A stretch of 63,844 bases of DNA. Origin: a virus. Below, piece after piece: positions 3,207-40,098 of this stretch; position 1 is the stretch's first letter, and each line of letters starts with the position of its first letter. The notes under the pieces are model-generated. The model had not been told where the DNA came from and did no database searches. It worked only from the letters and a program-made list of their open reading frames with translations. The stretch lies in the UHGV virus genome UHGV-0109393. One strand, 5' to 3'. A program made the translations under genes and the position numbers.

Positions 3207-4721
3207 TTAAATACTTCCCGCGTTATACCAAGTGCCATTGATACAATACTGCACAGGTCTTGCCTGAGTTGTATCAATAAGTTCGTCCTTATTTGAGTTG
3301 ATTGAGGCAGTAACAACATAACCAGATTTATCGTTCCAACCAGGACCATTCCATGTTTGCACTGACGATTTTGTACCTAATCGAATACCTGTAATAAATC
3401 GTGAATTACATTCTGCTTTGGTATATGCACCAACATCTCCCGCTGATGGCTTACGTGTTGTAGTGTAAAATTCCGACCAGTCGGCTTCAAAGCCATAACC
3501 GTCACGCGCAGAACGATAATAAATACCGCCGTTCTTATAATTCACGCGGAACTGAACAGCCGGACAACTACCAGCTCCCATATAAAAATGAAGAATTAAC
3601 GTAGATGCTCCACCAATATTTGCGTTATAAACCCCGCTAATTGAGTTCCATCCAACAGCTTTGTCATTTCCAACTGTGCTTCCTGTCTGCCCTAAAGCAA
3701 ATGCAGGTTGCTGGTTTTTTGTGCTGTAGTCGCGCCGCCAGCCTGGGGCGTAATCTGCGCCATGGTTTATATAAGTAAATTGCGCATTAGTGGTGCCACC
3801 ACCGGTGGAAGTGCTCGGGGTGGTTACACGGATGGTCATGGCACCTTTATTACCCATAACCTCAATAACGCAACCTGCAAGATGAATAGTTCCACAGCCA
3901 GTATCGGTAATAATTTTATTATTGCCGTATGACCATGAACATTTGCACATCCAGTATGGGTGATTGAATGCCCCTTGAGAATCCAGCCATTCAATCAATT
4001 GTGCCGTTGTCCAGTTCCCTGCCCCTGTACTAATAGCACTGTGAAAAGCGCGACATGCACCAATATTTTTTGTGAAGGTATCTTTTCCTGGAATATCTGC
4101 GCCGTTCTGGTTTTTCTGCAATGATCCAGCGGCTAGTTCTACGGTTTGCTCAAGATTTAAATTTTCAGCCGTTAGCTCAATATTTTTAGAACCATCAAAC
4201 GAAACACCGTTAATAGTGCGCGCCGTCTGCAATCTGGTCGCCGTAGCAGCATTGCCGGAGGTATCCTGATCCCCTTTGGCATTGACGCCGGGAATTGAAT
4301 CTTTTGACGTATAGACCTGCGCCCATTCAGACCAGTTGGCAGAATCAGTATCCCGCCGCGAACGGATATGTACGGGCGCATGGGCACCGCTCGTGCCACT
4401 CCAGCCAATGAATAACTCACCTTCGCCAGCAGCGGTGGCACCTTTGAGGTGAAGCACATTGCCATAGGGGGAAGGGTAGCCATTGTTGTATGCCTCATAC
4501 AGCTGAATCCCGGACGTTCCCTGTGCATTCGCCCCCAGGGCCGTTACGCGACCGCGCGATACCAGAGTATTGATATTAATGTCACCAGAACCATCGAACC
4601 TGACGCCATTAATGTTTATGGCTGTTTTCAATTTCGTCGCGGTGTCGGCGTTCCCCGCCAGCGCCCCGGTGATCCCGCCATTGAAAGTCTGGCGCGCACT
4701 CCATGTGTTAGCCGTACTCAA
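3207..4721 (-). CDS. Alternative tail fibre variable cassette (S'v), not joined to the constant part in this orientation
   Basis: 504-aa ORF whose N-terminal region ([18 protein letters not shown]) is encoded by the right inverted repeat and matches the S region at the window start; carries the same [29 protein letters not shown] motif as S. Confidence 0.7.
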
Positions 4722-4779: not shown

Positions 4780-5329
4780 ATGATGACGCCGGAAACTTCT
4801 TATAAAGCGTGGAAACAGCCACATCATAGATGATTGCAACCTGCTTACGGGGGATGCCCTTCTCGAGCAATCGCCGCATTTGCTGCCATGTTTCTTCTTG
4901 GTATTTAGGCCGACGCCCACCTATACGACCTTCTGCGCGAGCTGCATCAAGTCCAGCGCGTGTACGTTCAACGATAAGCTCACGTTCCATTTCTGCCAGC
5001 GCCCCCATTACGTGAAAGAAAAAGCGCCCCATTGGTGTACTGGTGTCGATGGAGTCAGTGAGACTCCGGAAGTTAATGCCTCTGTCACGCAGCTCTTCCA
5101 CCAGCACAACTAAGTGACGCATGCTGCGCCCAAGACGATCTAACTTCCATACGACTAGGGTGTCACCTCTGGAAAGCATACGGAGAACCTTTTTTAACCC
5201 TGGGCGTTCAGCCTTTTTGCCGCTCGCCTTATCCTCAAAAATTAGCTCACATCCTGCGCTTTCAAGGGCGTTTCGTTGTAAAGCGGTGTTTTGGTCATTA
5301 GTTGATACGCGAATGTATCCAATAAGCAT
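4769..5329 (-). CDS. cin: Serine DNA invertase (Cin/Gin/Pin/Hin family)
   Basis: 186 aa; MLIGYIRVSTNDQ... catalytic serine motif, GRxGGRRP hinge, C-terminal HTH; next to the invertible tail-fibre segment. Confidence 0.92.
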   Translation of the reverse strand: MLIGYIRVSTNDQNTALQRNALESAGCELIFEDKASGKKAERPGLKKVLRMLSRGDTLVVWKLDRLGRSMRHLVVLVEELRDRGINFRSLTDSIDTSTPMGRFFFHVMGALAEMERELIVERTRAGLDAARAEGRIGGRRPKYQEETWQQMRRLLEKGIPRKQVAIIYDVAVSTLYKKFPASSFQS

Positions 5330-13360: not shown

Positions 13361-13375
13361 CCGCTGAATGAAGTT

Positions 13376-30642: not shown

Positions 30643-30660
30643 AATTAATTTTCTAATATA
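30643..30660. promoter_or_regulatory. Operator-like site (variant)
   Basis: AATTAATTTTCTAATATA. Confidence 0.35.
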
Positions 30661-30736: not shown

Positions 30737-31129
30737 ATGGAGCATATCAGCAGCGCAGAAATTGCGGATATCATGATTAGGGCTGACTGCTATCTGACAG
30801 TCACCGAAATCACCACTCTAGCTAAAGAAAAATATCCTCACCTTCATGTTTCACGAGTAAGTGTAACCAACATCATTCGGCATTTTGTGCGGTCAAGCCG
30901 AGCTATTTGTGAGCTTGATGATCGTGTTTACCCACGGAAATACTGGTTGCATGGCCTGAACGGATATCAGTTCAAGGTGCGCGGGCGCACCCCTGAATAC
31001 GGTAGCTTACTGGTTAAAAACTGTAGCAGGAAATCAGTCGAACAGGCGCGAAAAGAGCAACGAGAGCTGGTGGACATGGCGAATAAGCTGTGGAATGCCG
31101 CCGTTAAAAAGCGTGGTGTTGCTTTATGA
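30737..31129 (+). CDS. Hypothetical protein directly upstream of terminase genes (late activator Lpa-like by position)
   Basis: 130 aa; stop overlaps the pacA start; position only. Confidence 0.3.
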   Translation: MEHISSAEIADIMIRADCYLTVTEITTLAKEKYPHLHVSRVSVTNIIRHFVRSSRAICELDDRVYPRKYWLHGLNGYQFKVRGRTPEYGSLLVKNCSRKSVEQARKEQRELVDMANKLWNAAVKKRGVAL

Positions 31130-32490
31130 GTCTGGTTAATTGGGAAGAGCACCGCGCCAAATTTATAGCGTTGCGTGAAGAAAAAGGGATCACCGTAAAG
31201 GAATACTGCGAGCAACACGACCTTAGCTTCAATACCGCCAGAAAGCATCTCAATATGAAAAAAAATGAGGTGCGGTCGCAGGTGAAGACTACAAAAAAAA
31301 GCACCAAATCACCTCAAAAAAAACGGGCAGGAAGAGCAAAAAAAAGACCAGAAGAGGGTACAGAAACAACAAAATTTACAGAAATTGACAATTCGCAGGG
31401 CACAGGTTCTTTCCGAAGTATGCCGAGAAAGAAAACTTCGGATCATGAAAATAATGCAAATAATAACAATGAGATAAAAGAATCTGTCAGGAGATCATTG
31501 CGCGAAAAAATGGCGAAAATGATCCCCACCGAAGATAAATGCGCCTCAAAAATCGAGGGATCTTCAGCAATGATCCCTGGCGGTGCTGTGCAGCGTGCCA
31601 CGTTGCCCACTACGAGTGTGGCTCGCGACATGATGAAGAACGGCGCAGAAGAGCACCTGCGGTTAGCAATTCAAATGGCGCAAGAACGCGCACTTCAGTA
31701 CCAAAGCATTGTTGATCAGGAGGCCGAACGCCTACAGGCGGAGATAGACGCCCTGGGTGATGAACAGCCAGAAGGAATGCACCCTGGGCAGCGACTTCTC
31801 GGTCTAATCAGTGACGCGGCCTACTACATGAACGATTTTATCAGTAGGTTGGCAGCGATATATCAGTCCGAACAAAAGCTGCGACAGGGTGATGAAAAAC
31901 TTCGTCAGGGTGCTCGCCAGCAAGCATTCAGAGAGGCCGAGGCCAGAGAAAAACTCGAATTAGCACGCCTACAGGCCGAACAGCGTGGCAAAGAGATTGA
32001 ATATCGCATTGGCGCTGACGCACGCGCAGCCAGAGTTATCGCCGCCGCTATACGTATGCGTGAGCGCGAGGAGCTGGACGATATCGGTGTTGCTGAATAC
32101 ATCGAGCGTCAGGGTGTCAGTGTCCCGGCTATCCTCGCGGCGCGCGCGGCGAAAGCTATCACTCTTCTCGAACCTCCAGTTTCTGACATCAATGATGTTG
32201 ATGATGAACAGCTGGACAAAGAAGCGAAGGAGTTTGCATCGCTTCAGGCTAACCATCCGCAATGGCTGGCAGAGCGCCGGGCGGATGTGGCAACCATTGT
32301 TGAAGATCTGGGGTGCGGAGATTACGACCACAATGGCGAGCGTAAGGCTGGGGAATTCGAGGCCAACGATGAAGAGTTGGACATTGACCCTTCGGCAACG
32401 GCTGAAATTTACGGTGATTATGATGCATCAGATGCAGGGTATGACGCCGGAGATGATGATATTGCGATAGAACCGCCGGAGGATGACTAA
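31126..32490 (+). CDS. pacA: Terminase small subunit (PacA-like)
   Basis: 454 aa; N-terminal putative HTH, basic region, acidic C-terminus; immediately upstream of and coupled to the large terminase. Confidence 0.6.
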   Translation: MSLVNWEEHRAKFIALREEKGITVKEYCEQHDLSFNTARKHLNMKKNEVRSQVKTTKKSTKSPQKKRAGRAKKRPEEGTETTKFTEIDNSQGTGSFRSMPRKKTSDHENNANNNNEIKESVRRSLREKMAKMIPTEDKCASKIEGSSAMIPGGAVQRATLPTTSVARDMMKNGAEEHLRLAIQMAQERALQYQSIVDQEAERLQAEIDALGDEQPEGMHPGQRLLGLISDAAYYMNDFISRLAAIYQSEQKLRQGDEKLRQGARQQAFREAEAREKLELARLQAEQRGKEIEYRIGADARAARVIAAAIRMREREELDDIGVAEYIERQGVSVPAILAARAAKAITLLEPPVSDINDVDDEQLDKEAKEFASLQANHPQWLAERRADVATIVEDLGCGDYDHNGERKAGEFEANDEELDIDPSATAEIYGDYDASDAGYDAGDDDIAIEPPEDD

Positions 32491-33998
32491 TGGCTGGTGG
32501 GCGCAAGATTAAATGCGTCACCAGCGATCCACGCTGGCGCGATATGGTAATCAAATACCGCTACAACTTTACCCAGGCTGTTGTTGATATATTCGGGATG
32601 TTTCCCTCCCACCAGCAGCAGGAGATTATCCAGTCCGTACAGCAAAAAGGGAGCAGAACCACTGTTACCTCTGGTCACGGTACAGGGAAATCGTCGCTAA
32701 CGGCTATGTTGTTGCTGATTTATTTGATTCTGTTCCCCGATGCCCGTGTCATCATTGTTGCTAACAAAATAGGTCAGGTTAAGACAGGTGTATTCAAATA
32801 CGTTAAACAGTATTGGGCGAATGCCGTTAAGCGTCATGGGTGGTTACAGACCTATTTTGTCCTGTCTGACACCATGTTTTATGAACGCTCTCGAAAGGGG
32901 ATCTGGGAAGTTCTCTGCAAAGGCTATCGACTCGGTAACGAAGAGGCTCTGGCGGGGGAGCACGCGGCACATTTGCTTCTAATTCTGGATGAAGCATCAG
33001 GTATATCTGATAAAGCGATCGGCGTAATGACTGGCGCTCTGACTGAAGAAGATAACCGAATGTTGATGCTATCCCAGCCAACAAGGCCAAGTGGTTATTT
33101 CTACGATTCGCACCATTCTCAAGCTAAAACCCCAGACAACCCGAAAGGGATCTGGACAGCAATTGTTCTTAACTCAGAAGAATCACCGTTCGTCACACCA
33201 CAATTCATCAGGCAGAAACTCCTGGAATATGGCGGGCGCGATTCTATTGAGTACATGGTCAAGGTTCTTGGTCAGTTTCCTCGGGAGATTAACGGCTATT
33301 TGCTTGGTCGTGATGAATGCGATCGCGCTGCGCGGCGCAAGGTGTTGTTGGAGAAAAACTGGGGATGGGTGGCTACTGCTGACGTTGGTAACGGGCGAGA
33401 CAAGTCAGTTCTTAATATCTGTAAAGTGTCTGGTCACCGGGAAAAGCGGCGTGTTGTTAACTTTAAGGTAATGGAAATGCCAGGGACTATGGACCCGCTG
33501 GCTTTTGCTGACTTTATATACAACGAATGCACGCCGGATAAATACCCGAATATTACAATCGCGGTTGACGCAGACGGTTTTGGTTCAGATACCTGTGCGC
33601 AGCTGGTGCGCCGTGGGGCTAATCCGGTACGGATTCGGTGGGGGAAACCCATGTTTTCGAACAAAGACAAGGAGCGTTTTGTTAACCAGCGTGCCTACGC
33701 AAATATTATGGCTCGTGATGCCATAAAGTCAGGTCGTATGCGAATAGACAGCGACCCTAAAACGGCAGAGCAAGCGTCAAAAATCCCCTTTTTACTTAAT
33801 GAAGAAGGGAAGATGGCGATGATGCGCAAGGAGCACATGCGGCAAAAGCTGAACATCAAATCACCTGACCGATGGGATACCTACTGCTTTACAATGCTGG
33901 TGGACTATGTTCCTGCTAATGAAGATATCGGCGCTGAAATGGCTACCTTCCGCGATCAGGTTCTTGCAGATGTGGAAATGCCAGATCTGGATATATAA
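32490..33998 (+). CDS. pacB: Terminase large subunit (PacB-like)
   Basis: 502 aa; Walker A VTSGHGTGKSS, acidic Walker B-like LLILDEASG, nuclease-like C-terminus. Confidence 0.75.
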   Translation: MAGGRKIKCVTSDPRWRDMVIKYRYNFTQAVVDIFGMFPSHQQQEIIQSVQQKGSRTTVTSGHGTGKSSLTAMLLLIYLILFPDARVIIVANKIGQVKTGVFKYVKQYWANAVKRHGWLQTYFVLSDTMFYERSRKGIWEVLCKGYRLGNEEALAGEHAAHLLLILDEASGISDKAIGVMTGALTEEDNRMLMLSQPTRPSGYFYDSHHSQAKTPDNPKGIWTAIVLNSEESPFVTPQFIRQKLLEYGGRDSIEYMVKVLGQFPREINGYLLGRDECDRAARRKVLLEKNWGWVATADVGNGRDKSVLNICKVSGHREKRRVVNFKVMEMPGTMDPLAFADFIYNECTPDKYPNITIAVDADGFGSDTCAQLVRRGANPVRIRWGKPMFSNKDKERFVNQRAYANIMARDAIKSGRMRIDSDPKTAEQASKIPFLLNEEGKMAMMRKEHMRQKLNIKSPDRWDTYCFTMLVDYVPANEDIGAEMATFRDQVLADVEMPDLDI

Positions 33999-34019
33999 AG
34001 CCCCGGCAATGCGGGGCTT
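33998..34019. terminator. Bidirectional terminator between pacB and the convergent gene
   Basis: aaGCCCCGgcaatGCGGGGCtt. Confidence 0.6.
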
Positions 34020-34023
34020 GTGA

Positions 34024-35061
34024 TTACCAGAGTTTAGCGGCGTGCTGTGTTTGGGAGAAAGTGAACCCGTAACGTTCTTCTATGGTTTTACCGTATCTTT
34101 TCCGCGCGTCTGTCAGTTTTATGCCTGTCAGGTCATCTCCGGATGTCATCATTACGTCTAACAACTCCAGATCCATTTTATTCAGTCGCGCCATCGCTTC
34201 GCGTGCTGTCTGTATTTTACGCTCAATGATATGGCGAATAGCCGGATCGGCTTCCTCAAGCATTTTGGCTGATTTGTTCTTTAAGCTCTCATTGCGGATG
34301 TCGATGTTTCGCAAGATGTATGACTTCGCAACATAGCTTGGTTGGTGTTTCTCCAGATCGCGAACGCGATAGAGACTAAAGTCACCAAGCAGGCCGCAAG
34401 GTATCGACTCAACCCCAGAATAAATAGTAATGCTGCGACGTTCGCCGACATTATTAACAACGGGCACTGTGGTGTTCGGAAGTTTTGCGAACACTAAGGC
34501 TCCGTGTGCGCCTACCCTGAATCGTGACAGAGCATTGCTGCCTTCAATGTTTGTTGTAAGCACTACATCTGTGTATCCATCTTTGCGCGCCCGGTAAACT
34601 TCCCCTTCAGGTTCTGATGCGAAAAAACGGCGCTCTTCTTCAAGTGCACCAACAATCTGCGAAAATATCTTGTTTTTCAGGCTTTTCTTTATAATTGCAT
34701 CATATTTTTTGAGCAGATTTTCGCGCGTAAATGAGCGGGTGGTGGTCGCGCTTTGCACAACAATATGCGTGCTTTGATTTGTGTCCTCGATAATGAATGG
34801 GATCGGAGAATATACAGACTCAACAATGTTAGACGCTTTGCCGTCAGCGTTACGGCACAAGTCAACAAAGGCTTTCCATTCTGTGAGGCACTTTTCAGCT
34901 TCTTCTAGCACATTCTGATCATGTGTTAGTGCAACATGGCGGAATTCCTCGCCGGAATAACTGGTATCATGGAAAACAGAGTTTGCGACCACCAGCTCTT
35001 TCCACCGTTCAGCGGTTTGCAGGAACCGTTTGTACTCTTTCTCGATCGACTTCTTACTCAT
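34024..35061 (-). CDS. Hypothetical protein in the c1-equivalent position (between terminase and lox-cre)
   Basis: 345 aa; an operator-like site lies 14 bp upstream of its start codon; no recognisable motif. Confidence 0.45.
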   Translation of the reverse strand: MSKKSIEKEYKRFLQTAERWKELVVANSVFHDTSYSGEEFRHVALTHDQNVLEEAEKCLTEWKAFVDLCRNADGKASNIVESVYSPIPFIIEDTNQSTHIVVQSATTTRSFTRENLLKKYDAIIKKSLKNKIFSQIVGALEEERRFFASEPEGEVYRARKDGYTDVVLTTNIEGSNALSRFRVGAHGALVFAKLPNTTVPVVNNVGERRSITIYSGVESIPCGLLGDFSLYRVRDLEKHQPSYVAKSYILRNIDIRNESLKNKSAKMLEEADPAIRHIIERKIQTAREAMARLNKMDLELLDVMMTSGDDLTGIKLTDARKRYGKTIEERYGFTFSQTQHAAKLW

Positions 35062-35074
35062 TATTCCTACTCGA

Positions 35075-35095
35075 TTTAGTTTTCTAACATAAAAT
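35075..35095. promoter_or_regulatory. Operator-like site
   Basis: TTTAGTTTTCTAACATAAAAT. Confidence 0.5.
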
Positions 35096-35255
35096 TACTA
35101 TGACAAATCTATGCCGAATAACAGGGTGAGTAAAGGATCAAGATGCATTTTTTTATCATCCAATTTAGAAAATTCTGCTTAAAAACTGCCAGGCATAACT
35201 TAAAGCCCACACCAGCAATGCATTGCCCATCTGCGCGGAAAGGAAAAAAATTCCT

Positions 35256-35268
35256 AAATTTCTAACTT
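35256..35268. promoter_or_regulatory. Operator-like site overlapping the left arm of the lox-like site
   Basis: AAATTTCTAACTT. Confidence 0.4.
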
Positions 35269-35295
35269 TAGATAATTGGCATTATTTAAAGTTAG
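35262..35295. other. lox-like recombination site (13-bp inverted arms, 8-bp spacer)
   Basis: CTAACTTTAGATA-ATTGGCAT-TATTTAAAGTTAG; arms match 12/13 to each other; same 13-8-13 geometry as loxP; 152 bp upstream of the Cre-like gene. Confidence 0.55.
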
Positions 35296-35446
35296 GCTAT
35301 AATCATGTGTAGATGAACAGTGTTGACATCACTGAAAATACGTGCCTCGAATCAAAGGCTTGTATTTTGAAAATTAACTTATAGCTACCCTGTCATTTTT
35401 ATATTTTTCGCGTAGCGTCATCTGTATATAGAGGTCAAATAGTTTC

Positions 35447-36475
35447 ATGGGTGAATTAATTATCTCTGGCAGTTCCGGTGGTTTTCTGCGCAACATTGGC
35501 AAAGAGTACCAGGAAGCCGCAGAAAACTTTATGCGGTTCATGAATGACCAGGGGGCTTATGCGCCGAATACTCTGCGCGACCTCCGGTTAGTGTTTCATT
35601 CCTGGGCGCGCTGGTGTCACGCTCGCCAGCTTGCCTGGTTTCCGATCTCACCAGAAATGGCCCGCGAGTATTTTCTTCAGCTGCATGATGCCGATCTGGC
35701 TTCGACCACCATTGATAAGCACTACGCCATGCTGAACATGCTGCTTTCGCATTGTGGCCTTCCGCCACTTTCGGATGATAAAAGTGTTTCTCTGGCTATG
35801 CGGCGCATCCGGCGCGAAGCGGCAACTGAAAAAGGCGAACGAACAGGCCAGGCTATTCCTTTGCGGTGGGATGATCTGAAACTGATCGACGTCCTGTTGT
35901 CCAGGTCAGAACGGCTGGTGGACCTGCGCAACCGGGCTTTTCTCTTTGTTGCATACAATACGCTGATGCGTATGTCGGAAATCTCGCGTATTCGCATAAG
36001 AGATCTGGACCAAACAGGTGACACTGTCACGTTGCATATTTCACACACGAAGACAATAACGACCGCAGCCGGGCTTGATAAAGTGCTTTCCCGTCGCACT
36101 ACTGCTGTGCTGAATGACTGGCTGGAGGCTTCCGGGCTTCGTGAACATCCTGACGCGGTGCTGTTCCCGCCGGTACACCGTAGCAATAAGGCCAGGATTA
36201 CGGCAACGCCCCTTACTGCACCTGCAATGGAGAAAATATTCAGCGACGCCTGGGTGTTGCTGAATAAAGGAGATGCTACGCCAAACAAAGGAAGATACCG
36301 GACGTGGACCGGGCATAGTGCACGCGTCGGGGCCGCTATCGATATGGCTGAAAAGCAGGTGTCTATGGTGGAGATTATGCAGGAAGGAACCTGGAAGAAA
36401 CCGGAAACACTTATGCGGTATCTGCGCCGTGGCGGCGTGTCTGTGGGGGCTAATAGCCGCCTGATGGATTTATAA
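35447..36475 (+). CDS. cre: Cre-like tyrosine recombinase (divergent from P1 Cre)
   Basis: 342 aa; C-terminal WTGHSARVGAAIDMAE...LMRYL aligns with Cre's WSGHSARVGAARDMA...VMNYI; similar length and domain order. Confidence 0.8.
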   Translation: MGELIISGSSGGFLRNIGKEYQEAAENFMRFMNDQGAYAPNTLRDLRLVFHSWARWCHARQLAWFPISPEMAREYFLQLHDADLASTTIDKHYAMLNMLLSHCGLPPLSDDKSVSLAMRRIRREAATEKGERTGQAIPLRWDDLKLIDVLLSRSERLVDLRNRAFLFVAYNTLMRMSEISRIRIRDLDQTGDTVTLHISHTKTITTAAGLDKVLSRRTTAVLNDWLEASGLREHPDAVLFPPVHRSNKARITATPLTAPAMEKIFSDAWVLLNKGDATPNKGRYRTWTGHSARVGAAIDMAEKQVSMVEIMQEGTWKKPETLMRYLRRGGVSVGANSRLMDL

Positions 36476-36494
36476 ATTAAATTTCTAACACATC
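36475..36494. promoter_or_regulatory. Operator-like site
   Basis: AATTAAATTTCTAACACATC, immediately after the cre stop. Confidence 0.45.
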
Positions 36495-36548
36495 TTTTTA
36501 GATTAACATCTTTGCTGTAAAGTACCCTCGCCTATTTAGGAGGGTGCT

Positions 36549-36893
36549 TTGCAGAGTCAAATCACGGAATCAAGACGCTTCAAGGTGGATGGTTACACCG
36601 TAACCTTCGCCGCTGGTGTTAAGAACAGTCATGCTGTCGTTGTGTTCGGCATCATGACCGGGCTTGAGGCCGTCCCTGTGTTTACCCTCGAAAAAAACTG
36701 GCGAAATCTGGAGGAAGCAGAAAGCTACGTCCGGAAAGTAACCATCATTGCCGCCGAAAAACTCCTGGCCCACTATCAGGAAAATTATCGCACTATGGTC
36801 GAGAAGATTAATCTCGCTTTCACTCGCCCCACTACCGGCTTTATTGCACCGGATACTAATGCAGGTCGCTATCCTGCAAGGGGGCGTCGGTGA
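36549..36893 (+). CDS. Hypothetical protein
   Basis: 114-aa ORF. Confidence 0.4.
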   Translation: MQSQITESRRFKVDGYTVTFAAGVKNSHAVVVFGIMTGLEAVPVFTLEKNWRNLEEAESYVRKVTIIAAEKLLAHYQENYRTMVEKINLAFTRPTTGFIAPDTNAGRYPARGRR

Positions 36894-39395: not shown

Positions 39396-39425
39396 GAAGC
39401 CCGCCTGGTTGAGCGGGCTTCTTTT
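39396..39425. terminator. Bidirectional terminator
   Basis: GAAGCCCGCctggttgaGCGGGCTTC followed by TTTT. Confidence 0.65.
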
Positions 39426-39805
39426 CAAATATTGGAACCAAATAATTCACGTAGTTTTTCCGCTACTGAAGATACGGGGATTTCACCAGTTGCGGCCCCC
39501 ACCGCAAGTTCCACCAGCACGGGAGAATCATATACCTGTATACCGTTACGGCGTAGAAATAGCAGCGCACTGTTTAGCGCGGTACGCTTATTGGCATCAT
39601 TGAATATATGCCCTCTCGCCGTAGCCACCAGGTAGGTGGCGGAGACTTCGAAAAGGTCGGTGATCTCTTCGTAGGCAACTCTGGCCTGAACTCTCCCGAT
39701 AATGGCCTCTGCCCTACCCGGATCTGACATTCCCGGCAGGCCGCCGTAGCGGCTTATATTCGCATCATGAAGCGCGATAAGTTCTTCCGGTGATATATGC
39801 CTCAT
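39425..39805 (-). CDS. doc: Doc toxin (Fic-fold kinase, death on curing)
   Basis: 126 aa; Fic-type motif HIFNDANKR; sequence essentially as recalled for P1 Doc. Confidence 0.92.
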
Positions 39806-40026
39806 TATCGGTTAACCAGTTCCTTGTTGGTGGAGTCCAGGGTGTCAAACAGGGATGCAAATTCAGCATCCAGCGCCGCTTTTTTGTAGGCTTCAAAAGT
39901 AGCCTTGCTGACAATTACTGCTGGCTCTCGGCCTCTGCGGGTGATTTCAACCTCTTCCCCGGCTTCAACATTGTTGAGCACTTCAGAAAGGTTGCCGCGC
40001 GCGGTACGGAAGTTAATGGATTGCAT
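39805..40026 (-). CDS. phd: Phd antitoxin
   Basis: [41 protein letters not shown]... matches P1 Phd as recalled; the ORF track adds two upstream codons. Confidence 0.9.
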
Positions 40027-40098
40027 AAACACCTCATGTACTCGTTATGTGTACACAACTATAAACTTCACAGGTATAAAGCACCAGCACTTTGCAGC

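Follow-up and report, generated by a model that had tools for sequence, protein, structure and literature searches.

The 63,844-nucleotide stretch of viral DNA analysed here (UHGV virus genome UHGV-0109393, hereafter the window) carries a recombinase gene and an adjacent inverted repeat that almost certainly form the Dre/rox module of a phage-plasmid, a D6-like plasmid prophage from E. coli or a closely related bacterium. The initial annotation had proposed a recombination pair with new specificity. The pair is indeed distinct from Cre/loxP, but it is not new, being equivalent to the Dre/rox pair of 2004; the window thus holds a natural allele of a system that is already known. Dre/rox was first reported in 2004, from phage D6 (Sauer and McDermott), and genome engineers have used it widely as a standard orthogonal tool. 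For two decades it has complemented Cre/lox in that capacity, so the discovery value of the pair is small. The one-base variant found in its target site is a common allele, and the enzyme shows no change to match it.

Identity of the target site and the recombinase

A 34-bp dyad, CTAACTTTAGATAATTGGCATTATTTAAAGTTAG, occupies positions 35262–35295. The lox-like site that had been reported here, read as CTAACTTTAGATA-ATTGGCAT-TATTTAAAGTTAG, was confirmed letter for letter, including the 9 of 13 positions at which each arm agrees with loxP and a spacer unlike that of loxP. The dyad lies upstream of the recombinase gene, with a gap of 151 bp to the gene start. It is present in a single copy in the window even when three mismatches are allowed, and none of 100 shuffled sequences gave a match. 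The proposed 13-8-13 geometry holds as a parse, with symmetry at 12 of the 13 arm positions, but the published geometry of rox is 14-4-14, for which 13 of the 14 arm positions are symmetrical. Mutational data in the literature suggest that the functional crossover region of rox is nearer to that of loxP in length.

The rox core (35263–35294, no strand assigned) is identical at 31 of 32 positions to the annotated rox of D6 (AY753669, misc_recomb 4909–4940). A rox site of 32 bp consists of 14-bp inverted repeats and a 4-bp TGGC/GCCA centre, and this is what the window contains, apart from one substitution in the left arm. The left, c1-proximal arm TAACTTTAGATAAT spans 35263–35276, the spacer TGGC 35277–35280, and the right arm ATTATTTAAAGTTA 35281–35294. 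Written on the window strand, the D6 core is TAACTTTAAATAAT-TGGC-ATTATTTAAAGTTA, with which the spacer and the right arm of the window are identical. The substitution is a G in place of the A of canonical rox at 35271, which is position 9 of the c1-proximal arm (loxP-style position 10). We refer to the two forms as G-rox and A-rox.

The recombinase gene, dre (35447–36475, plus strand), encodes a Cre-like tyrosine recombinase of 342 amino acids, 332 of which are identical to D6 Dre. At the DNA level it is 96.5% identical to D6 dre and 100% identical to dre of CP056796. At the ten positions where the protein departs from D6 Dre, the window residues are G2, I147, I184, R185, E227, A228, V243, A253, G275 and L342. 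The earlier description of a diverged, Cre-like 342-residue recombinase was borne out: the protein shows 40.1% identity to P1 Cre and contains a Pfam Phage_integrase domain (PF00589; E = 1.1e-16), and Cre crystal-structure sequences match its residues 22–341 with E = 1.6e-69. When it was aligned to Cre, as the initial annotation had suggested for the R-K-H-R-W-Y residues, all the catalytic residues were found. The complete set in the window protein is R175, E178, K202, H290, R293, W316 and Y325, corresponding to R173, E176, K201, H289, R292, W315 and Y324 of Cre, and the published catalytic positions of Dre coincide with them. The specificity residues R44, P259 and K263 are also present and are unchanged in all 13 Dre alleles compared. 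Karimova et al. found that the substitutions K43R, R259P and G263K in Cre, which introduce the Dre/Panto residues, make Cre active on rox (PMC4957104). The changes in rox and in Dre leave the known specificity determinants untouched.

A megablast search of positions 35100–36600 against phage genomes matched only Escherichia phage D6, in two records (AY753669 and MF356679) and at 96–97% identity. The GenBank record of D6 labels the homologous gene dre and the homologous 32 bp "crossover (rox) site for Dre recombinase". The surroundings agree as well, the order lpa-pacA-pacB-c1-rox-dre-orf-orf-dut being common to the window and D6. The c1 repressor gene (34024–35061, minus strand; 345 amino acids) is divergently oriented to dre and about 84% identical to D6 c1 at the DNA level. 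The packaging module lpa-pacA-pacB (30737–33998) adjoins c1-rox-dre in the D6-like arrangement, with lpa at 30737–31129, pacA at 31126–32490 and pacB at 32490–33998, all on the plus strand and all with ORF sizes as in D6 AY753669. To the right of dre are two small ORFs and dut, with phd/doc a few kb beyond. The window module and that of D6 are therefore alike in the gene (97% at the amino acid level), the site, the location between c1 and dre, the flanking genes, and the catalytic and specificity residues; they differ by the single A to G change, ten amino acids, another c1 allele and a region between c1 and rox that is 73% identical. Judged from sequence, every defining feature of Dre/rox is present in the window module.

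The P1 Cre/loxP system belongs to the same fold family and has the same catalytic R-E-K-H-R-W-Y set. Its site, too, has inverted arms on either side of a short asymmetric core and adjoins the recombinase gene near c1 and pac genes, and the roles of the system (cyclisation and dimer resolution) are presumed to be alike. In contrast, its protein (40% identity), its arms (9 of 13 positions) and its spacer are unlike those of the window, and Cre/loxP itself is therefore the wrong label for the pair. In the literature, Dre is described as recombining rox, and cross-reaction between Cre and Dre as absent.

The phd/doc region (39425–40032, minus strand) had been described as identical to that of P1. 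This is true of Phd, which matches P1 Phd at 73 of 73 residues, and of about the first 88 residues of Doc, but the C-terminus of Doc diverges, with 10 differences in residues 89–124.

The A/G polymorphism in the rox arm

An allele-specific 32-mer search of PLSDB found G-rox in 28 records and canonical A-rox in 110, which puts the G-rox share of natural rox sites at about 20%. The flanks of G-rox fall into at least three widely differing types, among them those of E. fergusonii plasmids and of an IncHI1B plasmid with a Dre of only about 88–89% identity. Homologues with 88–90% identical Dre and about 70% identical flanks show no variation in the rox core other than the A/G site. Two plasmids, L003 and L005, carry a Dre identical to the D6 protein beside G-rox; conversely, the Dre allele of the window stands beside canonical rox in plasmid L012, and the rox of CP056796 is also canonical. 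The rox alleles and the Dre alleles assort independently. G-rox is a common natural allele, and its free pairing with different Dre alleles, a D6-identical one included, gives no hint that specificity has changed.

Two other interpretations of the substitution were considered and rejected. The G allele is not tied to the left flank of the window, as CP149812 has the same flank and carries A. The "one point mutation" of E. coli DEC12A is not G-rox either, as it refers to the Dre protein (99.7%).

The base at 35271 falls within the three arm positions that separate rox from loxP (PMC4957104), so a modest effect of G on the affinity of Dre is conceivable. Related systems provide a comparison. In Panto/pox of Pantoea sp. 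aB, the pox and rox arms are alike but for a single position, and each of the two enzymes, Dre and Panto, acts on the site of the other; Panto shares 52% identity with Dre, pox has a different spacer, and recombination between rox and pox is absent (PMC4957104). Native pox, like the rox of the window, bears one arm asymmetry, and a natural single-base asymmetry of the arms is reported both for vox and for native pox. The spacer of rox is what sets site compatibility.

A truly new specificity, orthogonal to loxP as well as to canonical rox and with the arm change matched by changes in the enzyme, could draw on the location of the G at 35271, one of three arm positions by which rox is told from loxP, and on the ten residues by which the window Dre differs from that of D6. 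We nevertheless regard it as very improbable. Only one arm is altered; with the other canonical, the enzyme has to retain its binding to half-sites of the canonical form. Moreover, the Dre of CP056796 is identical to that of the window and is paired with canonical rox, while the D6-identical Dre of L003 and L005 is paired with G-rox; R44, P259 and K263 are constant among the 13 alleles, and the compatibility-setting spacer is unaltered. A milder reading, in which the G arm is an attenuated or asymmetric half-site that lowers Dre affinity, biases the order of strand exchange or damps recombination and leaves specificity intact, is unlikely. The G does break the perfect 14-bp symmetry in a region of base contacts, and its presence in about a fifth of the sites and in three flank lineages suggests tolerance or selection of the variant and not a defect of recent origin. 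However, in natural lox-like sites a single arm asymmetry is frequent and is not known to have any effect, vox and native pox being examples, and the A of CP149812, in a plasmid with the left flank of the window, fits a neutral polymorphism.

The window site would be expected to be recombined by the window Dre; the indirect evidence consists of a lineage switch within rox, the strict conservation of the site and published assays on canonical rox. Judging from natural populations, Dre tolerates A as well as G at position 9 of the arm, a latitude that may help in designing half-site variants.

Predicted transcriptional signals around rox and proposed roles of the module

A sigma-70-like promoter (TTGGCA-16-TATAAT; score 11 of 12) is predicted on the plus strand at 35276–35303, directed toward dre. 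It is the sole promoter-like site in 34950–36650, and its −35 hexamer spans the rox spacer. The TATAAT hexamer, a second TTGACA (35323–35328) and the block CGAATCAAAGGCTT do not vary among homologues whose flanks share about 70% identity; the second TTGACA and the block lie in the dre leader, at 35323–35360. The gene is probably transcribed from this rox-embedded promoter. Dre at rox would occupy the dre promoter and cover it, so autoregulation is plausible.

The initial annotation had noted that the site overlaps an operator-like motif. A dispersed motif is real: the 16-bp asymmetric sequence TTAnnTTTCTAACAyA has 13 copies in the window at up to 3 mismatches, against 0.6 expected, starting at 13374, 14576 (minus strand), 25523 (minus), 26774 (minus), 30645, 35076, 35254, 36477, 45221 (minus), 49593 (minus), 50248, 53131 and 60814 (minus). 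A strong copy (35076–35091, plus strand) lies just upstream of the c1 start codon and is kept in D6, L012 and L014, another lies 77 bp upstream of lpa (30645–30660), and a third directly follows the dre stop codon (36477–36492, plus strand). These three positions, near c1, lpa and dre, are conserved in D6. The copy that overlaps rox (35254–35269, plus strand) reaches 7 bp into the left arm from its outer end, but it is weak (13 of 16 positions) and confined to the left-flank lineage of the window: plasmids that share this flank (L014) have it, whereas D6 and CP056796 lack it. Nor is the motif a P1-type C1 operator, an identification that was rejected: the 17-bp P1 consensus ATTGCTCTAATAAATTT had no match across the window at up to 3 mismatches. 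The C1 operators of P1 stand at similar places. This resemblance in placement makes TTAnnTTTCTAACAyA a candidate for the C1 operator of D6-type phages.

With a near-consensus promoter over its spacer and right arm and a weak operator-like motif over its left arm, the dyad might be thought to be a mere transcriptional control element, a promoter or operator for dre or c1 at which no recombination takes place. We give this reading next to no probability. The dyad is identical at 31 of 32 positions to an annotated and experimentally used rox, the entire 32 bp and not the promoter hexamers alone is invariant in diverged homologues, a switch between lineages maps inside it, and regulation and recombination can coexist. 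A combination of the two is also imaginable. The left arm lies under the operator-like motif and the spacer forms the −35 element of the likely dre promoter, so repressor and Dre occupancy might gate each other and thereby tie both dre expression and the accessibility of rox to the immunity state. This proposal is improbable in our estimation; if true, it would be a regulatory layer undescribed for Cre/lox-type systems, and within it the A to G change in the arm could tune the balance between repressor and Dre.

The Dre/rox identification suggests how the module would work. If Dre acts as Cre does on loxP, one monomer would bind each of the two 14-bp arms of rox, and two rox sites would synapse as a tetramer. 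Tyr325 would cleave, and the strands would be exchanged in the central region. One role of such a reaction may be to circularise incoming, terminally redundant phage DNA. Another may be to resolve plasmid dimers and multimers before partition, so that the low-copy prophage would be partitioned faithfully. Multimer resolution has been assigned to the Dre/rox module of a D6-like Salmonella plasmid in the literature. Both circularisation and multimer resolution are thus probable roles in the element of the window, by analogy with the related systems.

Mosaic structure at rox and distribution on plasmids

The window is a natural recombinant of two lineages. Left of the site, 25 kb (10300–35261) are 100.0% identical to NZ_CP149812, with 0 differences. 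To the right, 35296–36740 has 0 differences from CP056796, and the identity to that plasmid is 98.8% over 24.7 kb (35296–60000), whereas the left flank of CP056796 is only 73–84% identical to the window. All 257 informative sites up to 35262 are of the CP149812 type and all 93 from 35296 onward are of the CP056796 type; the lineage switch therefore lies within 35263–35295, which is the rox site. CP149812 and CP056796 were rejected as the exact parents, as both have A at 35271. The true left parent would accordingly be a close relative that carries G, such as CP116989 or CP095127, and with CP116989 as the left parent the switch interval becomes 35272–35307. In plasmid L003 identity to the window extends as far as 35435, so the history may have been different.

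The lineage switch within rox could be a trace of Dre/rox activity in nature, with other histories allowed by L003 and by homologous recombination. Ordinary homologous recombination at the edge of a diverged immunity module, with no part played by Dre, is a possible but not a favoured origin of the switch. To the left of rox the lineages are only 73–84% identical, so homologous exchange would be confined to the right of that edge, and the match of L003 up to 35435 implies another pair of parents and a wider interval. On the other hand, the closest left relative, with 0 differences in 25 kb, gives a 33-bp interval that coincides with rox, although 2.8 kb or more on the right, where the DNA is about 96% identical, were equally open to exchange. 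Under an assumption of uniform exchange, the chance of a switch in rox would be about 1%. In addition, all four close left-flank relatives part from the window 1–27 bp past rox.

The segment comprising c1 and the spacer between c1 and rox (34024–35261) is an immunity allele unlike that of D6, with 84% identity in c1 and 73% in the 200 bp beside rox. To the right of rox, identity across lineages is 96–100%. The contrast between a diverged left and a conserved right side makes rox one edge of a variable immunity module, and a position at a module boundary in D6-like phage-plasmids agrees with the expected role of rox. When L005 (NZ_CP034790) was compared with the window, 72 differences were found in the 530 bp of the c1/pacB region at 33870–34400, followed by 0 differences up to rox. 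L005 thus has a second sharp mosaic boundary, and recombination is frequent throughout the D6-like family.

The dre/rox module was found in 116 plasmid records. Among 5426 complete E. coli genomes it is present in 101, and it is plasmid-borne in every case. The carriers are mostly non-mobilizable plasmids of about 90 kb that belong to rep_cluster_1704; about 100 carriers of this size span plasmids of E. coli, Salmonella and Shigella. These module-bearing plasmids of about 90 kb are D6-like plasmid prophages.

The module also occurs on large non-phage plasmids. L016 (NZ_CP029493, a 179-kb IncFIB/IncHI1B plasmid) has a perfect canonical rox and a 342-residue Dre homologue with 90% identity at 3501–4713, and L011 (AP024695, 147 kb, IncHI1B) has G-rox and a Dre homologue at 1502–2715. 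In L015 (NZ_AP027776, 44 kb, IncFIB) the longest ORF of the corresponding region (3501–4712) is 287 amino acids, and dre may be disrupted. On these three plasmids rox and the Dre homologue are flanked by IS26 and IS903B, and the Dre/rox module has apparently been captured by plasmids of the resistance type.
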